DNA from: a virus | Taxonomy: Duplodnaviria > Heunggongvirae > Uroviricota > Caudoviricetes | Reading direction: 5' to 3' (one strand) | Length of the DNA stretch: 64,000 nt | IMG/VR virus record: IMGVR_UViG_3300033076_001232 | Location: 142,435 to 206,434 of that record | Shown here: positions 3,429 through 32,982 of the stretch, piece after piece | How positions within the stretch are numbered: position 1 is the first letter of the stretch | How the letters are laid out: the number at the start of each line of letters is the position of its first letter | Made by a program: the position numbers and the translations under genes | Notes under the pieces: model-generated | Database searches by the model: none | What the model saw: the letters and a program-made list of their open reading frames with translations, nothing else | What the model was told of the DNA's origin: nothing

Positions 3429-3917
3429 GGGCCCGCTTTGGATTTGACAGGCGGAGGTAGTTCTTTGAGATGCAGGCAGTCTTAGATTGGAAAGACTTTA
3501 ATTACCTATCAAACAATAAACGCAAACGTTTACAATTCTGAGGATATCATGAGTATCCCAACTTCACTTACTCGCTCTGTAGTAGCTGAAGAGGTTGAGC
3601 TAGCTGTTGCAGCCTAACCAATTGGCGGCAACTGCCAATTATAAAAGAAAGTTGCAAGCTGGCAAGAAAAAAGGTTCGTAGTATTGCCTATTTGACATTG
3701 AGTGGAACCTTGAGGATTAGTTCAATACCCATTAAGATCGTCACTATCAATGTCAGTGAAACTTGGTTAGTACCGGGGAGTAAACCAGACCGAGCATTAA
3801 GTCTGAAAGAAAAAAGAAACGCACCAAAAGTTTGTTGATGTCGAAAAATCAACTAAGCCTGTGAATGAGTCCAATGGACATTCGATCTGGACGAGGGTTC
3901 GACTCCCTCCGGGTCCA
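3429..3917 (+). ncRNA. ssrA: tmRNA (transfer-messenger RNA, SsrA)
   Basis: 5' acceptor gggcccg pairs with 3' cgggtcc giving G3:U70; 5' ggatttgacagg matches conserved GGAUUCGACGGG; T-arm gaggg-ttcgact-ccctc; internal tag ORF ending gct gtt gca gcc taa (..LAVAA*) with uagua-GCU resume context; helix after stop codon. Confidence 0.85.
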
Positions 3918-3968
3918 CTTTTTTGAAACATTTTAGATAAATACTAATATAAAAATTAAATTATTATT

Positions 3969-14295: not shown

Positions 14296-16233
14296 GTGAA
14301 GGTATTTTTCATAGTCCCGCATTTGTCTACTGGAGGAATGCCGGAATATCTAAAGAATAAGATAGAGAAAATAAAGGACTCCTGTGAAATATGGGTTTTT
14401 GAAAAATCACACGAGAGGACTTATAACACAATCAGGAAAAGAATAGAATCTTTAATAGGACCAGAACGTATAATTACATTGGGTGCTAAGAAAAAGATAC
14501 TATTGGAATCCATAAGATCGATTGGTCCGGATGTTATACATTTCGAAGAACCCTGCGAGCATTTTCTTTCTGACGATATTCTTGAAGAGATATTTTATAG
14601 TGAAAGAAAATATCGTATCCTAGAAACTTTCCATGATTCGTCAATGCAGCCAGAGGAAAAAAAATTCTTGCCTGATAAATTTATAGTGGTTAGTCCATGG
14701 CAGGTTAAGTTGTTGCAGAAGTTAAAAATCCCTATGGAAGTTATTGAACATCAATTAGAGAAAAGGGAATTTAGAAATTCCGATGCAGCCAAGAATAAGC
14801 TAGGGTTAGATACCGGGCATAAACACGTGGTTCAAATTGGAATATTCACGCCAAGAAAAAACCAATCAGAGACAATTAATATAGCCAGATTAACCCCACA
14901 GATACAGTATCACTTCATTGGTACTTTGGCGGATAATTTCAAATGGTACTGGGAACCTTTGCTGAGAGATCTTCCCCCCAACTGTAAAATTTGGGGTGAG
15001 CGTGATGATGTTGATCTTTTTTATGAGGCTGCAGATCTTATCATATTTCCTTCCATAGAAAGATTCAACGATAAGGAAACAAGCCCTCTCGTTTTAAAGG
15101 AAGCTATCTCTTGGAAGACACCTCTTTTGATGAAGAACACCGATGTTTATTCAGACATGTATCAAGAATCAGATACGGTTCATTTCATGGGGGGTTCAAT
15201 AAATTATAATTCTAGAAAAATTTTACAAATATTAGGAGAAATGGAAACAGGAGGACAAAAATTCTCGGCTAGATTTGAAGCCGATGAAAATAAATTAATA
15301 GTGGGTCTTATGGAAAATGAGATAGGCGATGTTACCGTATCTATTAAGGATAGGGATTCTAACACCTGCATATTTTCATTTTCTCTAGATGCACAGTATG
15401 CGGGATCCGAATGGTGGTGTATCCCGATACCTAAGCCATACTTTGATTTTATGGGTGATAGAAACTTTAGTGGTTTCTTAGTCGAGTTTTACAAGTCATT
15501 GAACGAGGATCCAATCGAATCTTTGATTGTAGACCTAGATAAAAAACCCATCATGAAAAAAATGATAAACTCCGGTGGTCCTATTAACTTCGATCCTATT
15601 TTCGTAAATTACACACAGTTCTTTGTTGATGGAATTTATAACCAATTCTTTGCAGGCACCCGAGTGACAACTGCCATCGACATAGGAGCTAATGTTGGTC
15701 TTTTTACCGAATGGGTACTTGATAGATTCGGAAGCGACACGAAAGTAATTTCGGTTGAGCCAAATAGCAAAGCATGCGAATCATTCAGTTACATGCACTC
15801 AGGAAAAGAGAATGTTATTTTAGAAAAGCTTGCAGTCACTTCCACTGATAACGATGTGATCAAACTTTTAGTAAATCCGGAGAATACCCTAATATCTAGT
15901 GTAGAAGGTACTGGAGATGGCTACTCAGATTCAGAGGAGATCGGTACCATATCTCTCCTTAGTTTATTGGAAAAGCATGGTCTCTCTGAGGTTGATCTTC
16001 TTAAGGTTGACGTGGAGGGAGCAGAATATGATATATTTAGCGTTGTTTCACCGGAGGATCTCAGAAGGTTTAAGCACATGCTAATTGAATTTCATAACAA
16101 TAGAGGCAGAGCATCCGATTTGATATCAAAGATAATCTCTGCTGGTTTTGACGTGGATCTTAGAGACGACGATACAAGGTATCAAGTGGATCAGAACAAC
16201 GATAGAGGAACCATATTTGCAACAAGAAAATGA
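14296..16233 (+). CDS. Bifunctional glycosyltransferase (GT-B fold) / FkbM-family methyltransferase
   Basis: GTG start; GT-B C-terminal half motifs (EAADLIIFPS..E..PLVLKEA); C-terminal TAIDIGANVGLFTEWVL FkbM-like SAM motif. Confidence 0.6.
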   Translation: MKVFFIVPHLSTGGMPEYLKNKIEKIKDSCEIWVFEKSHERTYNTIRKRIESLIGPERIITLGAKKKILLESIRSIGPDVIHFEEPCEHFLSDDILEEIFYSERKYRILETFHDSSMQPEEKKFLPDKFIVVSPWQVKLLQKLKIPMEVIEHQLEKREFRNSDAAKNKLGLDTGHKHVVQIGIFTPRKNQSETINIARLTPQIQYHFIGTLADNFKWYWEPLLRDLPPNCKIWGERDDVDLFYEAADLIIFPSIERFNDKETSPLVLKEAISWKTPLLMKNTDVYSDMYQESDTVHFMGGSINYNSRKILQILGEMETGGQKFSARFEADENKLIVGLMENEIGDVTVSIKDRDSNTCIFSFSLDAQYAGSEWWCIPIPKPYFDFMGDRNFSGFLVEFYKSLNEDPIESLIVDLDKKPIMKKMINSGGPINFDPIFVNYTQFFVDGIYNQFFAGTRVTTAIDIGANVGLFTEWVLDRFGSDTKVISVEPNSKACESFSYMHSGKENVILEKLAVTSTDNDVIKLLVNPENTLISSVEGTGDGYSDSEEIGTISLLSLLEKHGLSEVDLLKVDVEGAEYDIFSVVSPEDLRRFKHMLIEFHNNRGRASDLISKIISAGFDVDLRDDDTRYQVDQNNDRGTIFATRK

Positions 16234-18542
16234 GAATAGCACAGATTACCCCTGGTGTAATTCCGATCCCACCAAATGGATGGGGTGCAGTTGAAAAAAT
16301 AATATGGGAATACACTAAAGTACTTAGATCATTAGGACATCATGTAGAGATATTATATTCAAGTGAGGTCAATCCGGACGAATGGGACATAGTACATGTT
16401 CATATGGCAAATCTTGCCCTGGATCTAAAGTCAAGAGGAATACCTTACATCTTCTCACATCATGATCACCATGCCTATCACTTTGGTAAAGAATCTCACA
16501 CTTACAAAGAAAACTTGGAAGCTATCCAGGGATCAATTGTGAGCTTCGTACATGCTAAATATTTAGTTGATTATTTTGGAGGCGGGGATAAATTAAGGTA
16601 CTTGGGTCACGGGGTTAATATCTGGGACTATGAGTTTAATGATAAATCCAGAAGCATTAAAGAGGGAAACATCTCATTGCTAATGTTAGCTAATAACGGC
16701 CTGGGCGGTGATAAGATGTACGATAGAAAGGGATTCAAATACGGAATAGAATCCGCAAGAAGATTGAATCTACCAATAACGATAATATGTCCATCCGATA
16801 ATTCCGATTTGATAGAATCAGTAGATCCCTACGAGAAGCTAACTCTCAAATATAATCTGGGCTATTTGGACACCCTGGAGGAAATAAGAAATCACCACAT
16901 TTTTTTGAATCCTTCGATGTTAGAGGCTGGACACCCAAACCTCACTGTTACTGAGATGTTGTCTCTGGGAATTCCAGTGATCGGTACGTGTGAGTCGGAA
17001 ATCCCAGGATTGGTGAGATTGCCACTAGCATCGGATCTTAGTATAGATTTAGATAATCTATGTGAATCTATAGAGAAAGCAATTAGAACTTATCCGCAGT
17101 TAGTTTTAGAATGTAAGAGAATCAGGGAATCACTTTCATGGGAGGTGGTTGTATCTAAGATGCTAATGGAGTACTCGTCATTCGCTAAGATCGATCAAAA
17201 GGAGCTTATTTTAAGCTCGTATAAGACTCCAATTAGAAAAGACATATTAACAGATGTTCGGGGGTTCGATTGCTCGTTTAATGGCTCTATTTACGCTTAC
17301 AAATCAGCCAATACACCTTCGATAACTTCAGTTTCATTTAAAGATAGAGGAACTAACCAGATAATATATAAATCCAAGTTTTCTAAATCGTCTAAATCCT
17401 GGATTATGTATGGCGATTCACCTAATAGATTCATAGACTGGGAGGTTGTTTTTAAGGTTGGAGACATTGAGGTATTTAAAAAATCGATGGATCTAAGGGA
17501 CAATCATGTTCTTGTTATTGGCGAGATTGGATCTGATAAATCCGAAATGTTATCGGATTTTGAGAAAACTACCGGATGTATACTATCATTAAGAGATTCT
17601 GAAATTAGTGGATTTTTCAAATCCGATGGATCCGATGATCTATACTATAGAAAGCTAAACCCAGAACAAATCTTAGATTTTTTCTCCCCCAAGGATAAGA
17701 TCACTAGCCGAACATTAATTACTCTGGAAACTGGATCTCTGGGTGACAATATAGCTTTCATTCCCTATGCTAATGAATATGGTAAGAAGATAGGTGAAAA
17801 AGTCGATGTTATCATGCCACACAAGGATCTATTTACCGATGTATATGAATGGGTAAACTTTGTAGATTCAGATGGATTGCATCCTTATACTAACTATGTA
17901 GCCATTGATTACATTTTCGAAAAACCCCTACAAGAGGGTGCGGCATACCAGCTAGGATTAGATTATCAAGAGATAAGACCGGAAATAAAACAGAGACAAT
18001 CCTTAGATATACCTTCGGGCAAATATGTGTGTTTCTCCATGCACAGCACAGCACAGGCTAAGCATTGGAATTATGACAAAGGATGGTCAAAACTATGTAA
18101 TGAATTGAAGTTAATGGGTATTACTCCAGTTTGCATAGATCGATACGAATCATTTGGTACAGAGGACAATTGGAATCCTATCCCTAAAAATTGTGTCAAT
18201 ATGACTGGGGGTGACCTAACAAGAATGATAGAAATAATTAGTGGGTGTGAATACTTTATAGGACTTTCTAGCGGTTTATCTTGGTTGGCACATGCACTAG
18301 GAAAGAGAGTGGTGATGATATCGGGGGTCACTTCTCCAGAAAATGAATTCACAATTGATTGCCTAAGAATACACGATTCCAGCGTTTGTAATTCGTGTTT
18401 TAATAAGTGTAAGGATTACGAGTTCGATCCCGGAGATTGGATGTGGTGTCCTGAATTTAGGGGAACCTCTAGACAGTTCGAATGTACTAAAGGTATATCT
18501 GCACATAGAATAATATCAGAAATAAAGAAAATCGGGTGGTAA
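16230..18542 (+). CDS. Multidomain glycosyltransferase: N-terminal GT4-like, C-terminal GT9 (heptosyltransferase-like)
   Basis: GWGAVEKI..HVH N-terminal GT4 features; C-terminal ETGSLGDNIAF and GGDLTRMIEIISGCEYFIGLSSGLSWLAHALG GT9 motifs. Confidence 0.6.
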   Translation: MRIAQITPGVIPIPPNGWGAVEKIIWEYTKVLRSLGHHVEILYSSEVNPDEWDIVHVHMANLALDLKSRGIPYIFSHHDHHAYHFGKESHTYKENLEAIQGSIVSFVHAKYLVDYFGGGDKLRYLGHGVNIWDYEFNDKSRSIKEGNISLLMLANNGLGGDKMYDRKGFKYGIESARRLNLPITIICPSDNSDLIESVDPYEKLTLKYNLGYLDTLEEIRNHHIFLNPSMLEAGHPNLTVTEMLSLGIPVIGTCESEIPGLVRLPLASDLSIDLDNLCESIEKAIRTYPQLVLECKRIRESLSWEVVVSKMLMEYSSFAKIDQKELILSSYKTPIRKDILTDVRGFDCSFNGSIYAYKSANTPSITSVSFKDRGTNQIIYKSKFSKSSKSWIMYGDSPNRFIDWEVVFKVGDIEVFKKSMDLRDNHVLVIGEIGSDKSEMLSDFEKTTGCILSLRDSEISGFFKSDGSDDLYYRKLNPEQILDFFSPKDKITSRTLITLETGSLGDNIAFIPYANEYGKKIGEKVDVIMPHKDLFTDVYEWVNFVDSDGLHPYTNYVAIDYIFEKPLQEGAAYQLGLDYQEIRPEIKQRQSLDIPSGKYVCFSMHSTAQAKHWNYDKGWSKLCNELKLMGITPVCIDRYESFGTEDNWNPIPKNCVNMTGGDLTRMIEIISGCEYFIGLSSGLSWLAHALGKRVVMISGVTSPENEFTIDCLRIHDSSVCNSCFNKCKDYEFDPGDWMWCPEFRGTSRQFECTKGISAHRIISEIKKIGW

Positions 18543-21425: not shown

Positions 21426-22391
21426 ATGGCAGAAATACTAAATCTGGTAAATCCGAAAGATAGCTTATCCTTTAAATATGAGATAAGCAGGTTCCCTGAC
21501 GGCCAGCAATCATTAAGACTGATTGAGGATGGTTACAACACATTCAATTCACTAAAGAATGCGGCGATCAAAATAAAGTCAAGACTAAACAATTTCCAGG
21601 ATTTGGAAATTATCATTTGCGCAACACAAGCTCTTAGGGAGGTTGGAGTGAATGATATCAGTCTTTACATTCCTTATTGTGTTGGTGCTAGAAGCGACCG
21701 AAAATTTTCAGAGGGTGGAATCAATTATGTTAAGACGGTGATTGCACCTATTATCAATTCACAGGGCTACTCGAGTGTCACAATACTTGATCCACATTCT
21801 GATGTGCTTGAGGCTTGCATTAACAATTTCAAAAAGATAAACAATTTCAATTTAGTCAATTTTTCTTTGAAAGAAATCCTACTTGAAGATTGGAGAAAAA
21901 CTTCGGACGATATTGGTTTCGAAGGGTGGTACAAATACGACTGGCTAAAGAACCCGGACATTGTCCTAGTTTCACCCGATGCAGGTGCTTATAAGAAAAT
22001 TTTTGATGTTGCAGAAAATTTCAGAATTAAGAGCATAGCAACAGCGGTCAAAGTTCGAGATTTGGAAACTGGAAAGATCCTGAGAACGGAGGTTCCAAAT
22101 TTACCCATTAGCACAACAGGAAAAGAATTTAGGTATGTAATTATCGATGACATTTGTGATGGCGGTAGAACATTCATTGAATTGGCAAAAGCGATCAAAG
22201 CTAGTCGCCCAACTGCTGAGATCTATTTAGTGGTCACTCATGGAATCTTCAGTGCTGGGTATGCTGAATTAGGAAAATATTTTAATGGAATCTATTGTAC
22301 AAACTCGGTAAAGGACATCGTACACGATCCAGAAGACACCGACCTCGAAAGAGAAATGAAGGAAAAAGTAAAACAATTAAACGTATTCTAA
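21426..22391 (+). CDS. Ribose-phosphate pyrophosphokinase-family protein (Prs-like; possibly ADPR-pyrophosphate synthase type)
   Basis: FPDGQ, IPYCVGARSDRK (cf. IPYFGYARQDRR), ILDPHS, VSPDAGA, VIIDDICDGGRTF PRPP-binding loop. Confidence 0.7.
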   Translation: MAEILNLVNPKDSLSFKYEISRFPDGQQSLRLIEDGYNTFNSLKNAAIKIKSRLNNFQDLEIIICATQALREVGVNDISLYIPYCVGARSDRKFSEGGINYVKTVIAPIINSQGYSSVTILDPHSDVLEACINNFKKINNFNLVNFSLKEILLEDWRKTSDDIGFEGWYKYDWLKNPDIVLVSPDAGAYKKIFDVAENFRIKSIATAVKVRDLETGKILRTEVPNLPISTTGKEFRYVIIDDICDGGRTFIELAKAIKASRPTAEIYLVVTHGIFSAGYAELGKYFNGIYCTNSVKDIVHDPEDTDLEREMKEKVKQLNVF

Positions 22392-23694: not shown

Positions 23695-24209
23695 TGAAAG
23701 TAATCAAACCTACAACCGAAAACCAATCAGTAAGATCCAACGATGTCTCGGTATTTTTAGCTGGCTCGATCGAAATGGGATCTGCTGAGGATTGGCAATC
23801 TAAACTCGAAGCCAAGTTAAAGGAAACTTTAGACCACGAGGATATTGTCCTATTCAACCCTCGGAGGGAATCCTGGGATTCCTCATGGGAGCAAAGAGAA
23901 ACAAATCCTGAATTCAATTACCAGGTTAATTGGGAATTATCAGCATTAGAAATGGCTGATATTATATTCTTGAATTTCTTACCCGACACAAAGTCTCCGA
24001 TATCTCTATTGGAGCTTGGAAAGTTTGCAAATAGCGGAAGAATGATTGTTTGCTGCCCTGATGGATTCTGTAGAAAAGGAAACGTCGAGATTGTCTGCAG
24101 TAGATATAACGTTCCTTTTTACGGATCTCTAGACGAAGCAATAGGATCATTGGTTACACGAATACACAAAACAAGAGTTTCTAAAAATTCTTTTTTTCTT
24201 TTACCCTAA
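23694..24209 (+). CDS. Nucleoside 2-deoxyribosyltransferase / Rcl-family protein
   Basis: VFLAGSIE N-terminal motif and SLLELGKFANSGRMIV catalytic-Glu motif. Confidence 0.55.
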   Translation: MKVIKPTTENQSVRSNDVSVFLAGSIEMGSAEDWQSKLEAKLKETLDHEDIVLFNPRRESWDSSWEQRETNPEFNYQVNWELSALEMADIIFLNFLPDTKSPISLLELGKFANSGRMIVCCPDGFCRKGNVEIVCSRYNVPFYGSLDEAIGSLVTRIHKTRVSKNSFFLLP

Positions 24210-24219
24210 ATACTAAACT

Positions 24220-24771
24220 ATGAAATTAAAATTTAACAGCTTAACAGCACGTTTATACAGATGGTTCTATATGGAATCAGGAATGCCGGAAAATCTATGT
24301 CCATATTTTTGGAAGCTAGTGTTAATGTGGCTATTAATGGTCCCTACCGTTATTCTCACACTCCCTGTTATTGTAACCAAGCAGAAACCAGATCATACTC
24401 TTTCCCGATTAATCTTAGGTTTTGCCTTATGGGTTTTTTTCGGAATTATAATTGTCGCTTTAGCCCCTATTACAATATTCTTTTGGGGATTTCTAGGTGA
24501 AAAATCAGTAATCGGAAACCTTCAATCTTTTGGTATTTTTCTTTGGGTAGTGATTCTGATGATTTCTATAATCTTTGGTGTGGTTCACCTTTTAAAAACG
24601 ATTAAAGATAGAAGAAATCATATAAGGAGAGAGTGGATTTGGGACCATAATGGTGACTATGTTAAAAATCCAGACTATATTCCTTATGAACCACAGACAA
24701 GCATTATAATTGAATTCATCAAGGCAAAGTATAAAAAGTACTGTCCAAAGATAGAATGGTCTAGAGACTAA
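24220..24771 (+). CDS. Polytopic membrane protein
   Basis: Multiple TM helices. Confidence 0.5.
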   Translation: MKLKFNSLTARLYRWFYMESGMPENLCPYFWKLVLMWLLMVPTVILTLPVIVTKQKPDHTLSRLILGFALWVFFGIIIVALAPITIFFWGFLGEKSVIGNLQSFGIFLWVVILMISIIFGVVHLLKTIKDRRNHIRREWIWDHNGDYVKNPDYIPYEPQTSIIIEFIKAKYKKYCPKIEWSRD

Positions 24772-24789
24772 CCTAAAATCAGAATAGAA

Positions 24790-25035
24790 ATGAATACCGA
24801 AAATCAGAAAGTAAACAAGGAATATCAAATGTTAACCGTCCGTGAGCACTTCGCAGCTATGGCAATGCAAGGAATGCTGGCTAATATCGATCAATCATAC
24901 GGTAAACCGAACGTAAATCAATCATCGATGGAGGATTCTTTAAGAAGAGAACAGCAGTTCATTGATGACGTAGCAATTAAAGCAGTTAGATATTCCGATG
25001 CTTTATTAAGAGCATTAGAAACTAAATCAGAATAA
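24790..25035 (+). CDS. Small hypothetical protein
   Basis: ORF track. Confidence 0.4.
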   Translation: MNTENQKVNKEYQMLTVREHFAAMAMQGMLANIDQSYGKPNVNQSSMEDSLRREQQFIDDVAIKAVRYSDALLRALETKSE

Positions 25036-25036
25036 A

Positions 25037-25504
25037 ATGAAAAGGTTAAGTAATAAAATAAAATATTCAGATAAAATTTTAGATAATTTATCTTCATTAA
25101 ATAACAAAGGTGATGGTGAGTTTATGGATGCTGAATGTGTTGACTTGTGTGATGCACTCAACTCAATGAAGGGAGTCACAACAAATGAATCTTGTTGTGG
25201 ACACAATCATCAACCTTATCGTATTTGGTTTAAGTGTGATTCATTAGAACCTTTAACATTTATTCAATCTTGTATTGATAGAAGGTATTGGGAATATGGC
25301 AATGAATGGTACATTGAACCTTCCATTTCAGATACAAAACCATTTCTAAACTTTGCCTTGACTAGCAAGTCTACTGATTTGAAAACCATCGTGTCACAGG
25401 TTGAAAGTATGATTGATATTTTCAATTACTATTTAAACCACGAGAATAGATTTGAAATGCTGGGTCAAAAATATGAGAATTTTATTTTTACCGAAGCTGA
25501 ATAA
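25037..25504 (+). CDS. Cys-rich hypothetical protein
   Basis: ORF preceded by aataaaATGa context. Confidence 0.45.
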   Translation: MKRLSNKIKYSDKILDNLSSLNNKGDGEFMDAECVDLCDALNSMKGVTTNESCCGHNHQPYRIWFKCDSLEPLTFIQSCIDRRYWEYGNEWYIEPSISDTKPFLNFALTSKSTDLKTIVSQVESMIDIFNYYLNHENRFEMLGQKYENFIFTEAE

Positions 25505-25531
25505 AACACTAACTAAATAAATCACAATAAG

Positions 25532-25834
25532 ATGAAAATACCACAGAAGATTAGAGTCAACTATTTTGACCTGGAAGTTCTAATGGCTCAAATGCTGGGA
25601 AAAGCTGAGCAATTCGAAAATGATGATATTGAAAATTTAGAAGAGGAATTCTACGAAAAATTTGATGTTGATTCAGAGCAGTTTCAAAAAATAGTAGAGC
25701 ATCTGATGCCATACACCGTATTATCTAAATCTGATCTTTCTGATGAAATAAGAATAGGATTCGTGAATCACAATGAGGGTGTCTATATAGTAAAAGAAAA
25801 TATCCAGCTAGAGAAGGTCATCAAGGAAGCTTAA
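25532..25834 (+). CDS. Hypothetical protein
   Basis: aataagATGa context. Confidence 0.45.
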   Translation: MKIPQKIRVNYFDLEVLMAQMLGKAEQFENDDIENLEEEFYEKFDVDSEQFQKIVEHLMPYTVLSKSDLSDEIRIGFVNHNEGVYIVKENIQLEKVIKEA

Positions 25835-25877
25835 AAATAGGAACATTGGAAGAAGTTTATAACGAAATCAAAATAAG

Positions 25878-26153
25878 ATGATAAAAACAAGAGAAAAATT
25901 ATTGAATGGAAATAATTGGTGTCATATCTATGTAGATGATGATGGGATAACTAATTATCATAATACTAAAACAAACGAAACCTATAGGGTAATACCTGAT
26001 AAATCGGCTTTTGGTTTTCATTTAGAGTATTTTAAAGATGCTGAATTAAAAGCAAGAAATAGTGTTTCGTTTGATGAGATGAAATGTATTGCTCTGTTAG
26101 CAGGTAGCAACAATCTGCTGAAAAACTTAGTCGGTGGAGAAAAAACTGTTTAA
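25878..26153 (+). CDS. Hypothetical protein
   Basis: aataagATGa context. Confidence 0.45.
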   Translation: MIKTREKLLNGNNWCHIYVDDDGITNYHNTKTNETYRVIPDKSAFGFHLEYFKDAELKARNSVSFDEMKCIALLAGSNNLLKNLVGGEKTV

Positions 26154-26163
26154 TTAGAATAAG

Positions 26164-26337
26164 GTGGAAAAAATACAAGATGTTAAGATTGGTCAAAAAA
26201 TAATCTCTCCGAGAAACGGTAAAGGGATCATAACCTCCAAAACAAAAAGAACAATAACCGTTGTTTTCGAAAATGGAAATACTTCGAAAGTAACTTACAA
26301 ATATAATGATGCGTATTTTTACGCATCAGATTTTTAA
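26164..26337 (+). CDS. Small hypothetical protein (57 aa, GTG start)
   Basis: Gap-filling ORF; contains 8-bp hairpin gatgcgta/tacgcatc near 3' end. Confidence 0.25.
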   Translation: MEKIQDVKIGQKIISPRNGKGIITSKTKRTITVVFENGNTSKVTYKYNDAYFYASDF

Positions 26338-26354
26338 CCTTCGATCGGAATAAA

Positions 26355-26507
26355 ATGGCAGGACTATTTTTATTTACCTTTATTTTTATCATCGCACAAT
26401 TTTTTGAGAAGTCAGATTATGAAAGAATGAAAGATGCTCAAAAGCTAACTTCGTTTACTAAACAAGAAGCAGAAAATTACTACATCAAAACATTTAAATC
26501 AAAATAA
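26355..26507 (+). CDS. Small TM peptide (50 aa)
   Basis: ggaataaaATGg context; hydrophobic N-terminus; stop abuts next start. Confidence 0.35.
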   Translation: MAGLFLFTFIFIIAQFFEKSDYERMKDAQKLTSFTKQEAENYYIKTFKSK

Positions 26508-26508
26508 G

Positions 26509-27180
26509 ATGAAAAATATACACTTATTACCAACAGAAAATTATAAACAAGATTACACTTTACAAAGTGGAGAAGTTGTAGAAGTCGTTAGATTAGGTCA
26601 GTTAATAAAAAATAGTGAAACTAATGAATTATTAATAAATAAAAATTCACATTGGGCAGCTTCATGTGATACTGACGTTCTGGTTCCTCATCATATTTAT
26701 ATTACTTCGGATGAACAAATTAAAGATAGAGATTGGTACATTTATATAAAAGATGGTTTATTAATACAATATAAAAAAGAATTTAATCCGTCTGCCGCAA
26801 GTGCTTCATACAATAAAAAAATTATTCTAACAACAGACCAAGACTTAATTAAAGATGGTGTACAACCTATTGATGATGAGTTTTTGGAATGGTTTGTTAA
26901 AAATCCAAGTTGTGAAAAGGCTGAGATTGAAAATGGCTGGGGTTTAGAAGTCGACATTCAAACTCCTTATTACAAAATAATTGTCCCAAAAGAAGAACAA
27001 TTACCAACAAAGTGGTTCAATACAGAAGAAATTGAAACATGGATTGGTAATTCAGATGAAGGTGGTAGAGGTAAGTTGATTGTACTTCATCAGTGTGGTG
27101 AAAATAAAGAAGAACTTATCAGTCAGTTAACTACAATGATTGATGGTTTAAAAAATGGATTTGAATACTTCGCACAATAA
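26509..27180 (+). CDS. Hypothetical protein
   Basis: ORF track. Confidence 0.5.
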   Translation: MKNIHLLPTENYKQDYTLQSGEVVEVVRLGQLIKNSETNELLINKNSHWAASCDTDVLVPHHIYITSDEQIKDRDWYIYIKDGLLIQYKKEFNPSAASASYNKKIILTTDQDLIKDGVQPIDDEFLEWFVKNPSCEKAEIENGWGLEVDIQTPYYKIIVPKEEQLPTKWFNTEEIETWIGNSDEGGRGKLIVLHQCGENKEELISQLTTMIDGLKNGFEYFAQ

Positions 27181-27191
27181 ATTAAAATAAT

Positions 27192-27638
27192 ATGAAACAA
27201 ATTAGTAAATCAGAATGGTTTGTATTAGACAGACCACTTGCGGAGCCAAATGTAAAATGGAGTGACGAGGATGGTGAATATCACATAGAAAGATACGTTT
27301 ATCAAGATGGTGCTGTCATTTGGTTTGGTTGTGATACTAATTGGAAGAAAGAGACTGGTGGTAATTGGACAGTACTCGCAACAAATACTGATGCTAAACC
27401 ATTAGAAAAATACTTACCCGAAATAGTGTATGGTAATGATAGAACATATTGGAAAGAATGTGAAATGCCGATATACGAGAAACTTTATTTAGGATTAAAA
27501 TCGGAATCTTGTTCTTGTAATAACGGGATAATAGTATGTCCAGGATGCGAGGGTGAGAAAAAATCGGAATTCGGCGTGTGTGCCGGGTGCCTCGGAGAAG
27601 GTAATGTTACGTGCGGTAAGTGCGGCGGAAATAATTAA
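27192..27638 (+). CDS. Protein with DnaJ-type CxxCxGxG zinc-finger repeats at C-terminus
   Basis: CPGCEGEK..CAGCLGEG..CGKCGG. Confidence 0.5.
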   Translation: MKQISKSEWFVLDRPLAEPNVKWSDEDGEYHIERYVYQDGAVIWFGCDTNWKKETGGNWTVLATNTDAKPLEKYLPEIVYGNDRTYWKECEMPIYEKLYLGLKSESCSCNNGIIVCPGCEGEKKSEFGVCAGCLGEGNVTCGKCGGNN

Positions 27639-27649
27639 ATTTGGATAAG

Positions 27650-27769
27650 ATGAGAAAAACATTAATAATAATTTCACTACCATTTAGATGGTTAGCTTAT
27701 CAGTTCCTTCAGTGGCTATTAAGAAGACACGATGACTATAACGAGAACTTTAAAAAGTATAACCTTTAA
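27650..27769 (+). CDS. Micro-ORF (39 aa)
   Basis: ataagATGa context; gap-filling. Confidence 0.25.
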   Translation: MRKTLIIISLPFRWLAYQFLQWLLRRHDDYNENFKKYNL

Positions 27770-27781
27770 AATCGAAATAAT

Positions 27782-27973
27782 ATGAAGATAGTAAGCTTAT
27801 ATCCATATGATGATGTATACCAAGTAGTAAGTGAAGATGAAGAAACAATTTACTATCAAGGTAGCAAAAAGGATTGTGAAAATAGGATTAAAAAAATTGA
27901 GCTAAATGAGCAAATGAGAGATAACTTAAAAGCAAAACTTTTTCTCACATCTATACTACACCGAAACATTTAA
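27782..27973 (+). CDS. Small hypothetical protein
   Basis: aataatATGa context. Confidence 0.4.
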   Translation: MKIVSLYPYDDVYQVVSEDEETIYYQGSKKDCENRIKKIELNEQMRDNLKAKLFLTSILHRNI

Positions 27974-27984
27974 ATCGGAATAAA

Positions 27985-28092
27985 ATGACAATAGATATAA
28001 TTTTGATACCAATATGGTTGTTTTCATCAGGTGTTTTGGTAGGTATATTAATTGCTGAAAGCATTATTAACAAAAAGAAAAACAAATCATAA
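27985..28092 (+). CDS. Micro-ORF TM peptide (35 aa)
   Basis: ggaataaaATGa context; single TM helix. Confidence 0.3.
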   Translation: MTIDIILIPIWLFSSGVLVGILIAESIINKKKNKS

Positions 28093-28096
28093 TAAG

Positions 28097-28225
28097 ATGA
28101 CGGCAATACTTATTAAAGCTGAAATGACCGATGAACAGCTAGAGGCTCTCGTTTCGGAGATCACGAGAATAGCAGAAGGAATAGGAATTAACTTAACAAT
28201 ACAATCGAAGGAAGATGAGCTTTAA
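28097..28225 (+). CDS. Micro-ORF (42 aa)
   Basis: aataagATGa context. Confidence 0.25.
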   Translation: MTAILIKAEMTDEQLEALVSEITRIAEGIGINLTIQSKEDEL

Positions 28226-28373
28226 AGCAATTAAAACCATATTTTGGTTCCGATTTTTTTCAGTATTTGACGTGCTGTTCTCGGAAAGATTCGAACTAAC
28301 TACTTGGGATAAAGAAGGTAGACAAACTTCTAAAACAAAATTCTCCAGAAGGGAGATAAAAGAAAAACTTTAA
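28215..28373 (+). CDS. Micro-ORF (52 aa)
   Basis: Gap-filling ORF overlapping previous by 11 nt. Confidence 0.25.
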   Translation: MSFKAIKTIFWFRFFSVFDVLFSERFELTTWDKEGRQTSKTKFSRREIKEKL

Positions 28374-28387
28374 TTAAAATACAGAAA

Positions 28388-28570
28388 ATGGGATTTTTAT
28401 CAAACTTAGTAAGCGCAACAGTAAAGACAGCACTAACCCCAGTGGCAGTCGTTAAGGATGTTGTTAATGTAGTAAAAGGGGAAGAAGCTGATTCAACTAA
28501 GAATCTTTTAAATAGTGCAGGAGAAGATCTTAAGGATGCAGGAGACGATTTAGTTGACGGCAACGTCTAG
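28388..28570 (+). CDS. Small hypothetical protein (60 aa)
   Basis: ORF track. Confidence 0.35.
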   Translation: MGFLSNLVSATVKTALTPVAVVKDVVNVVKGEEADSTKNLLNSAGEDLKDAGDDLVDGNV

Positions 28571-28641
28571 ATCAATTTTTTTCCCCCGTAAAGCAGTTTT
28601 AATTTTGGGTTCTAAATTAGGAATCCGCTAAAAAATAAAGA

Positions 28642-29046
28642 ATGAAATCTTTCAGTAAATTAGATGTAGATAAAGTCATCAGGATCGAATTAATCGAGCC
28701 GAAGTTATCTAGTTATAAATGGCTACCAAAGAAACAAAAAACATTTCTCTTTGGTCTCATCAAAAGAAACCGATGGAACTCCGAAGGCTTTTATCGTCAT
28801 GGATGCTATCAAGAATGTTACGAAAGCGGTTGCTTTGACGCAACCCCGGACAGCGAGAGGTGGCTTACAGAAAGAGGATACTATGTCTACCCAGATAAGA
28901 GTGTTTGGCATCCTGCTACCGTCCACGTAGATCTTGATCACGGGGTAAGATCTACAATAGCCTTTGGTAATACGGATGAAGCAAAGGAGTGGATTTCAAA
29001 ATTGGAGGAAATGTGTGGCAAAAAGTTTATCAACTACGGAAAATAA
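28642..29046 (+). CDS. Hypothetical protein
   Basis: ORF track. Confidence 0.45.
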   Translation: MKSFSKLDVDKVIRIELIEPKLSSYKWLPKKQKTFLFGLIKRNRWNSEGFYRHGCYQECYESGCFDATPDSERWLTERGYYVYPDKSVWHPATVHVDLDHGVRSTIAFGNTDEAKEWISKLEEMCGKKFINYGK

Positions 29047-29050
29047 AAAA

Positions 29051-29422
29051 ATGGAGATATTATTTAATCACGCCTTTATAAGAGTATTAGTTTACCCTAA
29101 AAAGAGATACAATGGCTCATGTCTCTATATCAAAAAAGGTTATAAAAATCTAGTCGGCCGCAAGTTTTGGATTTTTCCGGAATATGAAAAAATAGACTAT
29201 GCAGTTTTAACAACTTGGCCGGAGAGATTTGTATGTAGTGTTGAAGACTATGAGAGCGATGAAAAATACATTGAGAACAACGTAATCTATTACAAGCCTC
29301 ACTGCACAATAATCATGAATGACAAATCTGCCAGATCTGTAATTTTTGATACCCCCGAGGAACTGGAAAACTATGTGTCCGAACTTAAAGGAGGAATTCC
29401 ACACCTAGTGATAGAAGAATAA
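29051..29422 (+). CDS. Hypothetical protein (start trimmed to ATG 29051)
   Basis: In-frame ATG immediately after upstream stop. Confidence 0.4.
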   Translation: MEILFNHAFIRVLVYPKKRYNGSCLYIKKGYKNLVGRKFWIFPEYEKIDYAVLTTWPERFVCSVEDYESDEKYIENNVIYYKPHCTIIMNDKSARSVIFDTPEELENYVSELKGGIPHLVIEE

Positions 29423-29448
29423 AAAGTAAAATCGTAAATTCAAGTTAT

Positions 29449-31020
29449 ATGAAAGGAATAAACCCAGCCCTTCTAACCGACGGTTATAAAACAGGGCACC
29501 ATCAGCAATACCCGGAGGGAACAACTCTAGTGTATTCTAACTTTACCCCAAGAAGTAACAAGTATGCACCTAAGGGATGCGATCATGTTGTTTCTTTTGG
29601 TCAGCAACTTATCATGAAGCAGATTCACGAGAGCTTCCAAAAAGATTTCTTCGATCAGCCTAAAGATGAGGTGTGCTCGGAAATTAAGAGAGAGCTTTCT
29701 CTTTATCTAGGAGTCGATTACGATGTTAGTCACTTCGAAGCCCTTCACGATCTTGGATATTTACCTATTAAGGTTAAAGCAATCAAAGAGGGAACTTTAG
29801 TGCCAATCAAGGTTCCTGTCTTGACTATCTATAATACGGATCCCAACTTTTACTGGGTAACCAACTATTTGGAAACACTAATCTCAAATCTTCTTTGGAA
29901 GCCAATGACTTCCGCAACAATTGCTTACCAATACAAGAGAGTTCTTACCGATTGGGCTCTTAAAACCGACAAGGAAAACAAAACATTTGTTCAGTGGCAA
30001 GGTCACGATTTCTCTATGAGAGGTATGGATTCAGTGGATGCTGTAATTTCTTCCGGTCTTGGACACCTAACATCTTTTACTGGAACAGATTCCCTTCCTG
30101 CAATTTACGGAGCTCGTAAGTATTACGGAGCGGAAGGATTTGTCGCAGCGTCAGTGCCAGCAACAGAACACTCGGTAATGTGTGCTGGCGGGAAAGAGGA
30201 TGAGATTGAGACATTCCGAAGACTGATTAAGACTTACCCTGCTGGTATCTTGTCAGTAGTATCTGATACTTGGGATTTGTGGAAAGTGTGTACGGAGCAT
30301 GTGGTTACTTTGAAAGAAGAGATTTTGGCTCGTGATGGTAAGTTGGTTATTCGTCCTGATAGTGGTGACCCGGTTGATATCCTTTGCGGTACAGAAGATT
30401 ATACAAAATCTAAATTACCTTATGATGAGGTTAAAGATGTAGAAGTTATGCACCCTAGCCAAAAAGGTGTAATTGAACTTCTTTGGGATGTATTTGGAGG
30501 AACTGTTAACGAACAAGGTTACAAAGTACTTGATCCACATATCGGAGCAATCTATGGCGATAGCATTACTATCGATCGTGCTGAGCAAATCTGCAGCAGA
30601 TTAGCTTCAAAGGGATTTGCATCAACAAACGTAGTGCTTGGGGTAGGATCTTTCACTTACCAGTACAACACCCGCGATACATTTGGTTTTGCAATGAAGG
30701 CAACTTATGTTGAGGTTAAGGTTCCTAAATATGGTGATTTTGCGGACCAAGGGTTGAATACCGAAATTGAAGGTAGAGAAATCTTCAAAGATCCAATCAC
30801 CGATGATGGAACGAAGAAATCTGCAACTGGCTTACTAAGCGTAGTTAGCCGTCCAGGTGAAGGTTTAACCCTAGTTGATAAGTGCGACTGGAAACATGAA
30901 AATGTCGGAGCATTGGAAACAATCTACCACGACGGAAAATCTAGCTCCGAGATCACTCTTTCTGAAATTAGAAACAATCTTGAATTTTCTTTGATTAAAG
31001 AGAGAGAAATTATTTTTTAA
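29449..31020 (+). CDS. Nicotinamide phosphoribosyltransferase-family protein (NAMPT/NadV-like; possibly Namat-type)
   Basis: VPATEHSVM, SFTGTDS, IRPDSGDPV motifs conserved with NAMPT. Confidence 0.7.
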   Translation: MKGINPALLTDGYKTGHHQQYPEGTTLVYSNFTPRSNKYAPKGCDHVVSFGQQLIMKQIHESFQKDFFDQPKDEVCSEIKRELSLYLGVDYDVSHFEALHDLGYLPIKVKAIKEGTLVPIKVPVLTIYNTDPNFYWVTNYLETLISNLLWKPMTSATIAYQYKRVLTDWALKTDKENKTFVQWQGHDFSMRGMDSVDAVISSGLGHLTSFTGTDSLPAIYGARKYYGAEGFVAASVPATEHSVMCAGGKEDEIETFRRLIKTYPAGILSVVSDTWDLWKVCTEHVVTLKEEILARDGKLVIRPDSGDPVDILCGTEDYTKSKLPYDEVKDVEVMHPSQKGVIELLWDVFGGTVNEQGYKVLDPHIGAIYGDSITIDRAEQICSRLASKGFASTNVVLGVGSFTYQYNTRDTFGFAMKATYVEVKVPKYGDFADQGLNTEIEGREIFKDPITDDGTKKSATGLLSVVSRPGEGLTLVDKCDWKHENVGALETIYHDGKSSSEITLSEIRNNLEFSLIKEREIIF

Positions 31021-32939: not shown

Positions 32940-32954
32940 AAAACACAATTTAAA

Positions 32955-32982
32955 AGATAGGTCTTCGGACCTATCTTTTTTT
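32955..32982 (+). terminator. Rho-independent terminator (UUCG tetraloop)
   Basis: 9-bp stem agataggtc/gacctatct, loop ttcg, T-run. Confidence 0.85.

Follow-up and report, generated by a model that had tools for sequence, protein, structure and literature searches.

A recurrent stop-start junction between the small genes of a phage accessory island, a candidate Shine-Dalgarno-independent translation joint and cassette boundary

A 64,000-nucleotide (nt) stretch of an uncultivated phage of the Caudoviricetes (IMG/VR record IMGVR_UViG_3300033076_001232, positions 142,435 to 206,434), referred to here as the window, contains between positions 24790 and 28570 a block of small open reading frames (ORFs) whose starts share a short conserved sequence. 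We analyzed this block, the island in which it lies and the shared sequence, copies of which also recur as a junction element, named M1, in front of small genes in many phage contigs. The window is 99.93% identical to the ENA metagenome contig ERZ4212978 NODE_15 (221,881 bp), and a second contig of 250 kb also carries the 223-amino-acid (aa) protein of the block; the phage is about 222-250 kb in size. Nearly all genes of the window lie on the + strand until about 53 kb and are non-structural in content, including glycosyltransferases, a thymidylate synthase, a PRPS-like gene, a NAMPT-like gene and an SPFH protein. Beyond about 53 kb, virion-type genes are found on the - strand.

The block holds 14 consecutive + strand ORFs of 35-223 aa, with sizes in order of 81, 155, 100, 91, 57 (GTG start), 50, 223, 148, 39, 63, 35, 42, 52 and 60 aa. 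A preliminary description of this DNA, made from its letters, had counted at least 15 ORFs; the number becomes 16 when the two ORFs up to the NAMPT-like gene are included, and its count of six ORFs below 60 aa agrees with ours. The gaps from each stop to the next start are 1, 27, 43, 10, 17, 1, 11, 11, 12, 11, 4, -11 and 14 nt, with a median of 11 nt, and the stops therefore do abut the starts as had been described. The GC content of the block is 32% (30% at 25000-27200) vs 36.8% for the whole window. As was also proposed earlier, it stands apart from its flanks as a distinct block of small accessory genes amid metabolic and probable anti-defense genes. The ORFs are not paralogues of each other, all pairwise comparisons giving E > 0.1, and paralogy was rejected as the source of the repeated upstream strings. 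The presence of a small-ORF block with a shared start context is thereby confirmed.

The features of the island and its two flanking partners are given below. A colon separates the junction from the start codon, M1 and M2 are two junction types defined further on, and labels such as L306 or L452 denote fetched IMG/VR loci. Codon scores are codon-usage log-odds in bits per codon, trained on 26 long genes of the window.

21426-22391, + strand: PRPS/Adps-like gene, left partner of the split pair; PF00156 and PF14572, both under the Pfam cut-off.
24210-29448, + strand: whole lineage-specific insertion, with a 183-aa membrane protein, the 14-ORF block and ORFs at 28642 and 29051.
24769-25035, + strand: junction TAACCTAAAATCAGAATAGAA:ATG and ORF1 (24790-25035, 81 aa); the TAA of the junction is the stop of the 183-aa gene; match to phrog_2201 (E = 7.7e-12), codon score 0.26; its C-terminus ...ETKSE* falls within the following junction, and its C-terminal homologues in L121 and L116 end beside a motif copy.
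25023-25521, + strand: junction AAATCAGAATAAA:ATG and ORF2 (25037-25504, 155 aa, six Cys), a candidate cassette with homology to L306.
25514-25834, + strand: junction TAAATAAATCACAATAAG:ATG and ORF3 (25532-25834, 100 aa, acidic); match to phrog_10957 (E = 9.4e-11); six other loci match the junction region 25492-25543 at 86-90% identity.
25860-26153, + strand: junction GAAATCAAAATAAG:ATG and ORF4 (25878-26153, 91 aa); motif match, codon score 0.18.
26146-26337, + strand: junction TTTAATTAGAATAAG:GTG and ORF5 (26164-26337, 57 aa, GTG start); homologue in L055 (54% identity, E = 2e-16); a single-nucleotide strain difference at 26229 is synonymous; a terminator-like hairpin with a T run (26307-26328) lies inside its 3' end.
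26335-26507, + strand: junction TAACCTTCGATCGGAATAAA:ATG and ORF6 (26355-26507, 50 aa) with an N-terminal transmembrane segment (Kyte-Doolittle score 2.28); its tail ...AENYYIKTFKSK (...TFKSK) lies within the next junction; 26458-26516 shows 82-91% nt identity to more than 35 loci and corresponds to the widespread ...EQYYNETFKSE* tail plus junction.
26491-27180, + strand: junction CATTTAAATCAAAATAAG:ATGA and ORF7 (26509-27180, 223 aa); the best motif copy of the window, with 2 of 18 mismatches.
27178-27638, + strand: junction TAAATTAAAATAAT:ATG and ORF8 (27192-27638, 148 aa); the TAA at -14 is the stop of ORF7.
27636-27769, + strand: junction TAAATTTGGATAAG:ATG and ORF9 (27650-27769, 39 aa); the TAA at -14 is the stop of ORF8; codon score 0.24; one weak partial match, in L111.
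27767-27973, + strand: junction TAAAATCGAAATAAT:ATG and ORF10 (27782-27973, 63 aa); 27 homologues in viral contigs, ten with an M1 junction upstream and most of the others with M2.
27971-28092, + strand: junction TAAATCGGAATAAA:ATG and ORF11 (27985-28092, 35 aa, single transmembrane segment, Kyte-Doolittle score 2.36); motif with 3 of 18 mismatches; the TAA at -14 is the stop of ORF10.
28079-28225, + strand: junction AAATCATAATAAG:ATG with two tandem TAA and ORF12 (28097-28225, 42 aa); its homologue in L122 (62.5% identity, E = 5e-10) itself stands behind M1 with one mismatch.
28215-28373, + strand: ORF13 (52 aa), without the junction motif (AATCGAAGGAAG:ATG); overlaps ORF12 by 11 nt; codon score 0.18.
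28374-28570, + strand: ORF14 (28388-28570, 60 aa), without the junction motif; homologues in L235, L269 and L282 (72-77% aa identity), where the gene lies directly 3' of NAMPT.
29449-31020, + strand: NAMPT/Namat-like gene, right partner of the split pair; PF04095 and PF18127.

The island occupies the space between the NDT-like gene, which ends at 24209, and the NAMPT-like gene, which starts at 29449. A total of 80 IMG/VR loci encode NAMPT homologues of 66-77% identity with PRPS-like, macro-like, NDT-like and NAMPT genes as neighbors, and the PRPS-like gene adjoins or is near NAMPT in 69 of them. Among the 23 relatives with the same gene order, the gap from NDT to NAMPT is 7-400 nt in 22 and 2,433 nt in L284, compared to 5,240 nt in the window. 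Eleven of the 14 ORFs have no counterpart in the 80 related loci, which makes the block a variable island rather than a conserved module; conservation in relatives, which the preliminary description had named as a check on its reading, does not hold at this position. The block is a low-GC insertion specific to this phage. The PRPS-like and NAMPT-like pair carries the Pfam signature of NARP1 (Adps plus Namat), a phage NAD+-reconstitution pathway with a counter-defense function, with the PRPS match below the Pfam cut-off. The best cultured-phage match of the NAMPT-like protein is that of Bacillus phage SPbetaL1 (54% identity), whose homologue is a characterized Namat. The two genes are 7 kb apart in the window. 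The island thus splits a probable NARP1-like anti-defense operon. Cultured phages gave no nucleotide match to the block, no close cultured relative was obtained by tblastn with the 770-aa glycosyltransferase or with NAMPT, and a 67-nt junction query returned nothing significant.

The start context was quantified over the whole window. The string AATAARATG occurs in 14 copies against 4.4 expected, a number reached by none of 100 shuffles, and AATCNNAATAANATG with at most one mismatch occurs in 12 copies in 64 kb against 1.6 expected. Nine of these 12 copies fall within the 3.1 kb of 25025-28099 (binomial P for clustering 2.6e-10), and all copies in the window are found on the coding strand and at starts. 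With an 18-nt consensus and at most six mismatches, 11 of the 14 block starts match, vs about two of 84 other gene starts in the window. The context is thus special to the block and not equally frequent at all genes. The last two ORFs (28215 and 28388) are without the motif, so the earlier claim of a conserved AATAA(G/A)ATGA context at each start does not extend to them. The near-duplicate upstream strings reported before, one at 26342 and 27975 and another at 25863 and 26495, are indeed present. Compared to a generic A-rich context, the block profile is distinguished by T-14, AAA from -13 to -11, T-10, C-9, AA at -6 and -5, T-4, and AA at -3 and -2, each present in 64-100% of the starts.

The first sign of the complete element was contig L076, which carries five near-perfect copies of TTTAAATCAGAATAAKATGA ahead of small ORFs. 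An exact 17-mer gave at least 120 matches in IMG/VR, and the consensus of their flanks, M1, is (T/A)AACCTTTAAATCAGAATAAG:ATGA, with a length of about 24 nt. We found 257 unique M1 instances (at most two mismatches of 16) in 149 loci among 3.4 Mb of fetched viral loci, many of them arrayed at a spacing of about 200 nt. The ORFs downstream of M1 have a median size of 66 aa (interquartile range 46-85) and 89% of them are at least 30 aa long, whereas ATGs taken at random lead into ORFs below 30 aa in 70% of cases. A second type, M2, which surfaced without being searched for, has the consensus TTTAAACAACAAGAACA:ATGA and numbers 99 instances across 35 loci, with a median size of 64 aa for the ORFs behind it; the share of ORFs of at least 30 aa across M1 and M2 is 89-93%. 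In L452 (4735-6321), and also in L096, L120 and L136, the upstream stop overlaps the start as ATGA at M2, with seven in a row before small ORFs. M1 and M2 are interleaved within the same arrays in 16 loci, and the idea that they are phage-specific dialects was rejected on this ground. A third candidate junction, GAGGAGCTATGA from L162, was dropped with three occurrences in all. The preliminary description had thus recognized a start context that is real and had missed it as a junction with built-in stop codons shared across the pool of contigs.

The element is rare outside phages. A 20-mer of the motif matched only 22 stretches in 596 Gb of prokaryote genomes, 11 of them in metagenome-assembled genomes (MAGs) of Bacteroidota. 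Most of these are isolated start sites of host genes that are not related to each other, and a few are phage contigs binned in error. We rejected the possibility of a general host start signal, given this rarity and the host matches that precede unrelated genes without shared flanks.

M1 contains a TAA at each of -21, -14 and -4, one per reading frame. Each of them is in use: in a set of 243 instances, the ORF arriving from upstream terminates at -4 in 53%, at -14 in 21% and at -21 in 9%, together 83%. In the window, built-in stops close ORFs 1, 6, 7, 8 and 10, with near variants elsewhere. The upstream half CCTTTAAA is retained in 65%, 57% and 95% of the -4, -14 and -21 classes, respectively, and in 17% of the instances where there is no upstream ORF. 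As it is kept in all frame classes, including non-coding ones, its conservation is at the nucleotide level. The drop to 17% ties the upstream half to termination of the upstream ribosome or to a joint between genes, which speaks against a promoter. Read in the -4 frame, M1 encodes ...(T)FKSE*, which is why unrelated proteins, ORF1 and ORF6 among them, share a tail of this kind. The stops overlap the next start or lie within a few nt of it, the geometry of termination-reinitiation.

The downstream half of the junction resembles the start regions of Bacteroidia. Both M1 and M2 have A at -3, -6, -12 and -13, the positions at which adenines were found to raise initiation in Flavobacterium johnsoniae by ribosome profiling and reporters (PMC6847099). 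In the block starts, A is present at -3 in 93%, at -6 in 86%, at -12 in 93% and at -13 in 71%. G does not exceed 36% at any position from -25 to -2 and reaches 50% at -1, the R of AATAAR, and no Shine-Dalgarno (SD) sequence is therefore present in the block. The 84 gene starts outside the block also lack SD sequences, with A-12 in 70%, A-11 in 62%, A-3 in 58% and A-6 in 54%, showing the generic Bacteroidia-type pattern known from F. johnsoniae (PMC6847099). The mean minimum free energy of the region from -25 to +25 is -1.5 kcal/mol for the block, vs -3.1 at other starts and -6.1 inside genes (Mann-Whitney P = 0.046 and 3e-7), so that the block start regions are predicted to be essentially unstructured. 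In its adenines, its lack of SD and its reduced structure, the junction agrees with an SD-independent initiation region of Bacteroidia type. Indirect clues to a host among the Bacteroidia are the start-region statistics, the 11 of 22 genome matches in Bacteroidota MAGs and one homologue from a Bacteroidota MAG.

Comparison of the island by blastn to all fetched loci revealed that each gene has separate nucleotide partners and that the edges of homology lie at junctions. The segment 25023-25521, composed of a junction and ORF2, begins at the motif and is 87.6% identical in nt and 89% in aa to L306, where the surrounding genes are unrelated to those of the island, yet possess M1-like junctions. 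The segment 27192-27488 is 84.5% identical in nt to L452-455, beginning exactly at the ATG, and the junction before the L452 homologue of ORF8 is M2. The Cys-rich tail of ORF8 (27525-27631) matches another locus, L135, with 79% identity. The segment 27769-27988 is 76% identical in nt to L307/L308, from junction to junction, and 28374-28560 matches the three NAMPT relatives L235, L269 and L282, in which the gene occupies the opposite flank of NAMPT. At 25492-25543 and 26458-26516, the junction regions themselves have matches of 82-91% in dozens of loci. By analogy, the pattern is that of modular shuffling as described for the promoter early stem-loop (PeSL) of T4-type phages, with a different kind of linker (cf. 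PMC4122927).

Several lines of evidence suggest that most of the micro-ORFs are coding. The codon scores of all 14 ORFs are 0.11-0.32 bits per codon, compared to 0.26 +/- 0.09 for true 50-codon gene pieces and 0.01 +/- 0.14 for wrong-frame decoy ORFs. Four substitutions distinguish the block in the window from the ENA contig, three of them synonymous in the predicted frames and one changing N to D. Homologues elsewhere were found for ten of the 14 ORFs, the 39-aa ORF by a weak partial match only; the 91-aa, 50-aa, 35-aa and 52-aa ORFs have none among the fetched sequences. The 35-aa ORF has the weakest coding support in the block, with an antisense frame scoring higher. It and the 57-aa ORF with GTG start were missed by the gene caller of the source assembly.

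We favor, at a probability of about 0.6, the reading that the junction is an SD-independent stop-restart translation joint and at the same time the boundary of single-gene cassettes. On this reading, an island of real, mutually unrelated small genes was inserted into the NAD+-reconstitution locus, its genes joined by somewhat decayed copies of M1. Each junction would stop any incoming ORF in any frame by the TAA at -21, -14 or -4, and the next AUG would follow 1-18 nt on in an unstructured context with A at -3, -6, -12 and -13, then ATGA/AAA. With such stops and such an open adenine context, ribosomes would efficiently restart or load afresh on each cistron of a polycistronic message without SD. 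As many phages have this one sequence at the borders of many unrelated genes, the junction could also act as a homology patch for the exchange of single-gene cassettes, and such exchange would have built the island. From the observed junction anatomy, motif enrichment, frame-independent conservation, insertion and gene-by-gene mosaicism with edges at junctions, we infer that ribosomes restart or load afresh with efficiency, that recombination takes place at the junction and that the genes are co-transcribed.

Several observations weigh against this reading. The window copies are degenerate, with 2-6 mismatches of 18, and two block ORFs are without the motif. The homology to L452 begins at the ATG and the junction type differs there, so the junction is not always inherited with its ORF. 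T-10, C-9 and the CC of CCTTT are strongly conserved and accounted for neither by the stops nor by the known adenines; something more specific may recognize the motif. Part of the spread of the motif is explained by the abundant protein tail ...EQYYNETFKSE* encoded across it. The term Bacteroidia-type draws only on the start-region statistics and the 11 of 22 genome matches in Bacteroidota MAGs.

The preliminary description had likened the block to an early host-takeover region made of membrane-active and zinc-finger peptides. Such a takeover or counter-defense module is compatible with the stop-restart junction, and we hold it as a tentative possibility. The small, packed and fast-evolving ORFs resemble known takeover and hyperplastic regions, and the island splits the NARP1-like anti-defense pair, which is an association only. 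Likewise by association only, the ORF8 homologue of L452 lies in a small-ORF array near matches to Acb2/Tad1-hairpin (weak), Lockin and ART-PolyVal. The block encodes two to four hydrophobic peptides and one Cys-rich tail. Two of the several single-transmembrane peptides that had been described are clear (the 50-aa and 35-aa ORFs, both single-pass), and two more are hydrophobic and marginal; the wording "membrane-active and zinc-finger peptides" applies to these two to four ORFs and to one ORF, respectively. On the other side, no match to a known takeover or anti-defense family was found, and the ORFs lack conservation among relatives. Scans of the block ORFs against Pfam and PHROG gave two PHROGs without assigned function, the rest being sub-threshold noise.

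ORF8 is the only clearly Cys-rich protein of the block with a CxxCxGxG motif. It had been called DnaJ-type, a designation that is not supported: PF00684 has four repeats and ORF8 one exact CxxCxGxG and two partial ones. An N-terminal domain that normally occurs as stand-alone proteins of about 105 aa (66 matches, 54-82% identity) is fused to a C-terminal Cys-rich tail of about 45 aa that is found separately on other proteins, and ORF8 is thus a two-module mosaic. ORF8 has no Pfam match at E <= 0.1, its 47-aa tail none at E <= 10, and none of 77 homologues has a Pfam domain. The best PDB match is anti-TRAP (E = 0.43).

ORF7, with at least 7,978 homologues, none having a Pfam domain, and 305 places in IMG/VR, belongs to a very large uncharacterized phage family. 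Its AlphaFold2 model, from a 34-sequence alignment, has a pLDDT of 55 and a pTM of 0.43, too poor for a fold search. Within the gene, about 100 nt at 26814-26915 coding for KKIILTTDQDLIKDGVQPIDDEFLEWFVKNPSCE show 85-95% nt identity in over 100 homologues, whose proteins elsewhere share only about 40% identity. Third codon positions in this segment are 0.67-0.82 identical, vs 0.43 in another conserved stretch, which could reflect constraint on the nucleotide sequence or a hot spot of recombination. In L061 (4400-7700) and L054 (4262-7386), the family is present as three or four paralogues in tandem, sharing a tail ...WFEQFKKK* that is encoded across another recurring junction, TTGAACAATTTAAAAAGAAATAA..ATGAAA.

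The junction might instead be bound or cut by a sequence-specific RNA-binding regulator or endoribonuclease, comparable to RegA/RegB of T4, by which the messages of the small genes would be switched on or off together; its role at translation starts would then be secondary. T-10, C-9 and CC, which ribosome preference does not explain, overlap the ribosome-binding window; the motif is confined to a subset of genes per genome; and the start-associated sequence (SAS) elements of Cluster K mycobacteriophages were similarly interpreted (PMC3203893). However, no candidate factor was identified, and the contigs with the motif differ widely in size and gene content. We consider such a target unlikely as the main explanation, though it is compatible with the stop-restart junction and does not exclude it.

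A promoter for a phage RNA polymerase or sigma factor, giving a leaderless or near-leaderless mRNA per gene and possibly one temporal class, would account for an asymmetric and strongly conserved element of about 20-24 nt like the promoters of phage RNA polymerases. It would also fit the likeness of M1 and M2 in one half with difference in the other, and the absence of the element from host genomes. It is at odds with a distance to the ATG fixed at zero, with the loss of the upstream half (down to the 17% given above) at genes without an upstream ORF, where a promoter is most needed, and with a motif that commonly forms the last codons of the upstream gene. Neither terminators between cistrons nor hairpins at junctions were found. 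Known host promoter patterns are not enriched, the sigma-70-type patterns (42 sites vs 40.8 expected) being at chance level and the Bacteroidetes-type -33/-7 pattern not above chance. These points render a promoter rather improbable, slightly more so than a regulator target.

Pairing to 16S rRNA would provide a more specific form of the stop-restart junction. The upstream half CCUUUAAA(U/C) would pair with the Bacteroidota-specific 16S sequence GUUUAAAGG and hold the ribosome until restart at an AUG 11-13 nt downstream, doubling as a swap adaptor with stops in three frames, a counterpart of the termination upstream ribosome-binding site (TURBS) of caliciviruses. CCTTTAAA of M1 and CCTTTAAAC of M2 are complementary to 16S GTTTAAAGG / GGGTTTAAAGGG, which are invariant in 46 Bacteroidota 16S genes taken from metagenomes. 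Shuffled motifs reach at least 8 nt of complementarity in 7-11% of trials and at least 9 nt in 1-2%, and the duplex energy of M1 and M2 with 16S is not above that of shuffled motifs. The pairing is consistent at one site and does not go beyond the shuffle controls; it is kept as a lead, and the mechanism as a whole seems doubtful.

Least probable of all is a passive relic, in which tandem duplication of one small-gene family with the C-terminal peptide ...YYNETFKSE* copied the start region along with it: many 17-mer matches do carry the coding tail GAACAATACTACAACGAAACCTTTAAA and TAVEWL...YYNETFKSE paralogue arrays exist (e.g. L162), but the ORFs of the window show no paralogy, the ...FKSE* ending occurs on unrelated proteins (L119, L158), the motif is as conserved in other frames or non-coding, and the junctions are far better conserved than the flanking ORFs.

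Three other features of the window are recorded here. A phage-encoded tmRNA gene lies at 3429-3920 on the + strand (Rfam RF00023, 87.3 bits, E = 1.7e-32), with the ARAGORN tag peptide EEVELAVAA*. Large glycosyltransferase/FkbM-methyltransferase genes occupy 14338-18542; their best match in a deposited phage, at 36% identity, is the 735-kb "uncultured phage" record LR756501/LR756503. Behind the SPFH gene (32952-32979) stands a strong hairpin of 12 bp that can be read in either direction.

Bacteroidetes were reported to use SD for neither initiation nor reinitiation, with no substitute named (Huber et al. 2019, PMC6728339), and how the internal cistrons of Bacteroidia operons start is an open problem to which the junction looks like a natural optimized answer. 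The island may show how SD-blind ribosomes restart on multi-gene messages and how phages swap single genes. The junction could be used for finding micro-ORFs and their starts missed by gene callers in uncultivated phages, here the 35-aa and 57-aa ORFs, for marking the boundaries of single-gene cassettes in phage accessory islands, and for compact SD-free polycistronic constructs for Bacteroidota.

The host-takeover module of SPO1 and the early small-gene clusters of T4 have mapped early promoters, SD sites and demonstrated host-shutoff functions. The block shares with them a dense one-strand array, genes of 40-200 aa and uniform strong translation signals; its promoter scans were at chance level and its starts have no SD. 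The Kozak-like start regions of Bacteroidia (Baez et al. 2019, PMC6847099) are degenerate statistical preferences, while the junction is near-exact over at least 20 nt, has the extra invariant T-10, C-9 and CCTTT, and is rare in host genomes.

The PeSL of T4-type phages (Arbiol 2010, PMC2839356; Comeau 2014, PMC4122927) is likewise a conserved intergenic motif that flanks small variable ORFs in hyperplastic regions and marks exchange points between unrelated sequences, with gene-by-gene indels and swaps. The breakpoints agree, as homology blocks begin or end at junctions and relatives have no such island. A PeSL combines a terminator stem-loop with a sigma-70 early promoter, whereas the junction has no stem-loop (minimum free energy about -1.5 kcal/mol) and no promoter match and is a stop/start joint at the ATG.

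The closest likeness in kind is with the SAS of Cluster K mycobacteriophages (Pope et al. 2011, PMC3203893). Each is a short asymmetric repeat that occurs in a single orientation directly upstream of starts, at a subset of non-structural genes from different families, and is essentially absent from the host genome. In SAS too, the repeat sometimes contains the upstream stop, and an unproven part in translation initiation has been suspected. The SAS is 13 bp (GGGATAGGAGCCC) with an SD core, stands at a distance of 3-7 bp from the start, is restricted to a single phage cluster and has an upstream inverted-repeat extension in about half of the cases. The junction has a length of about 24 nt, is rich in A/T and without an SD, directly adjoins the ATG, contains stops in all three frames and is found in hundreds of contigs in at least two types; it was rejected as an SAS proper, being unrelated in sequence and without GGAG. 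A literature search for the motif string and related descriptions gave nothing relevant, and the motif, not previously described in the literature searched, is an element of the same kind as SAS with a different sequence.

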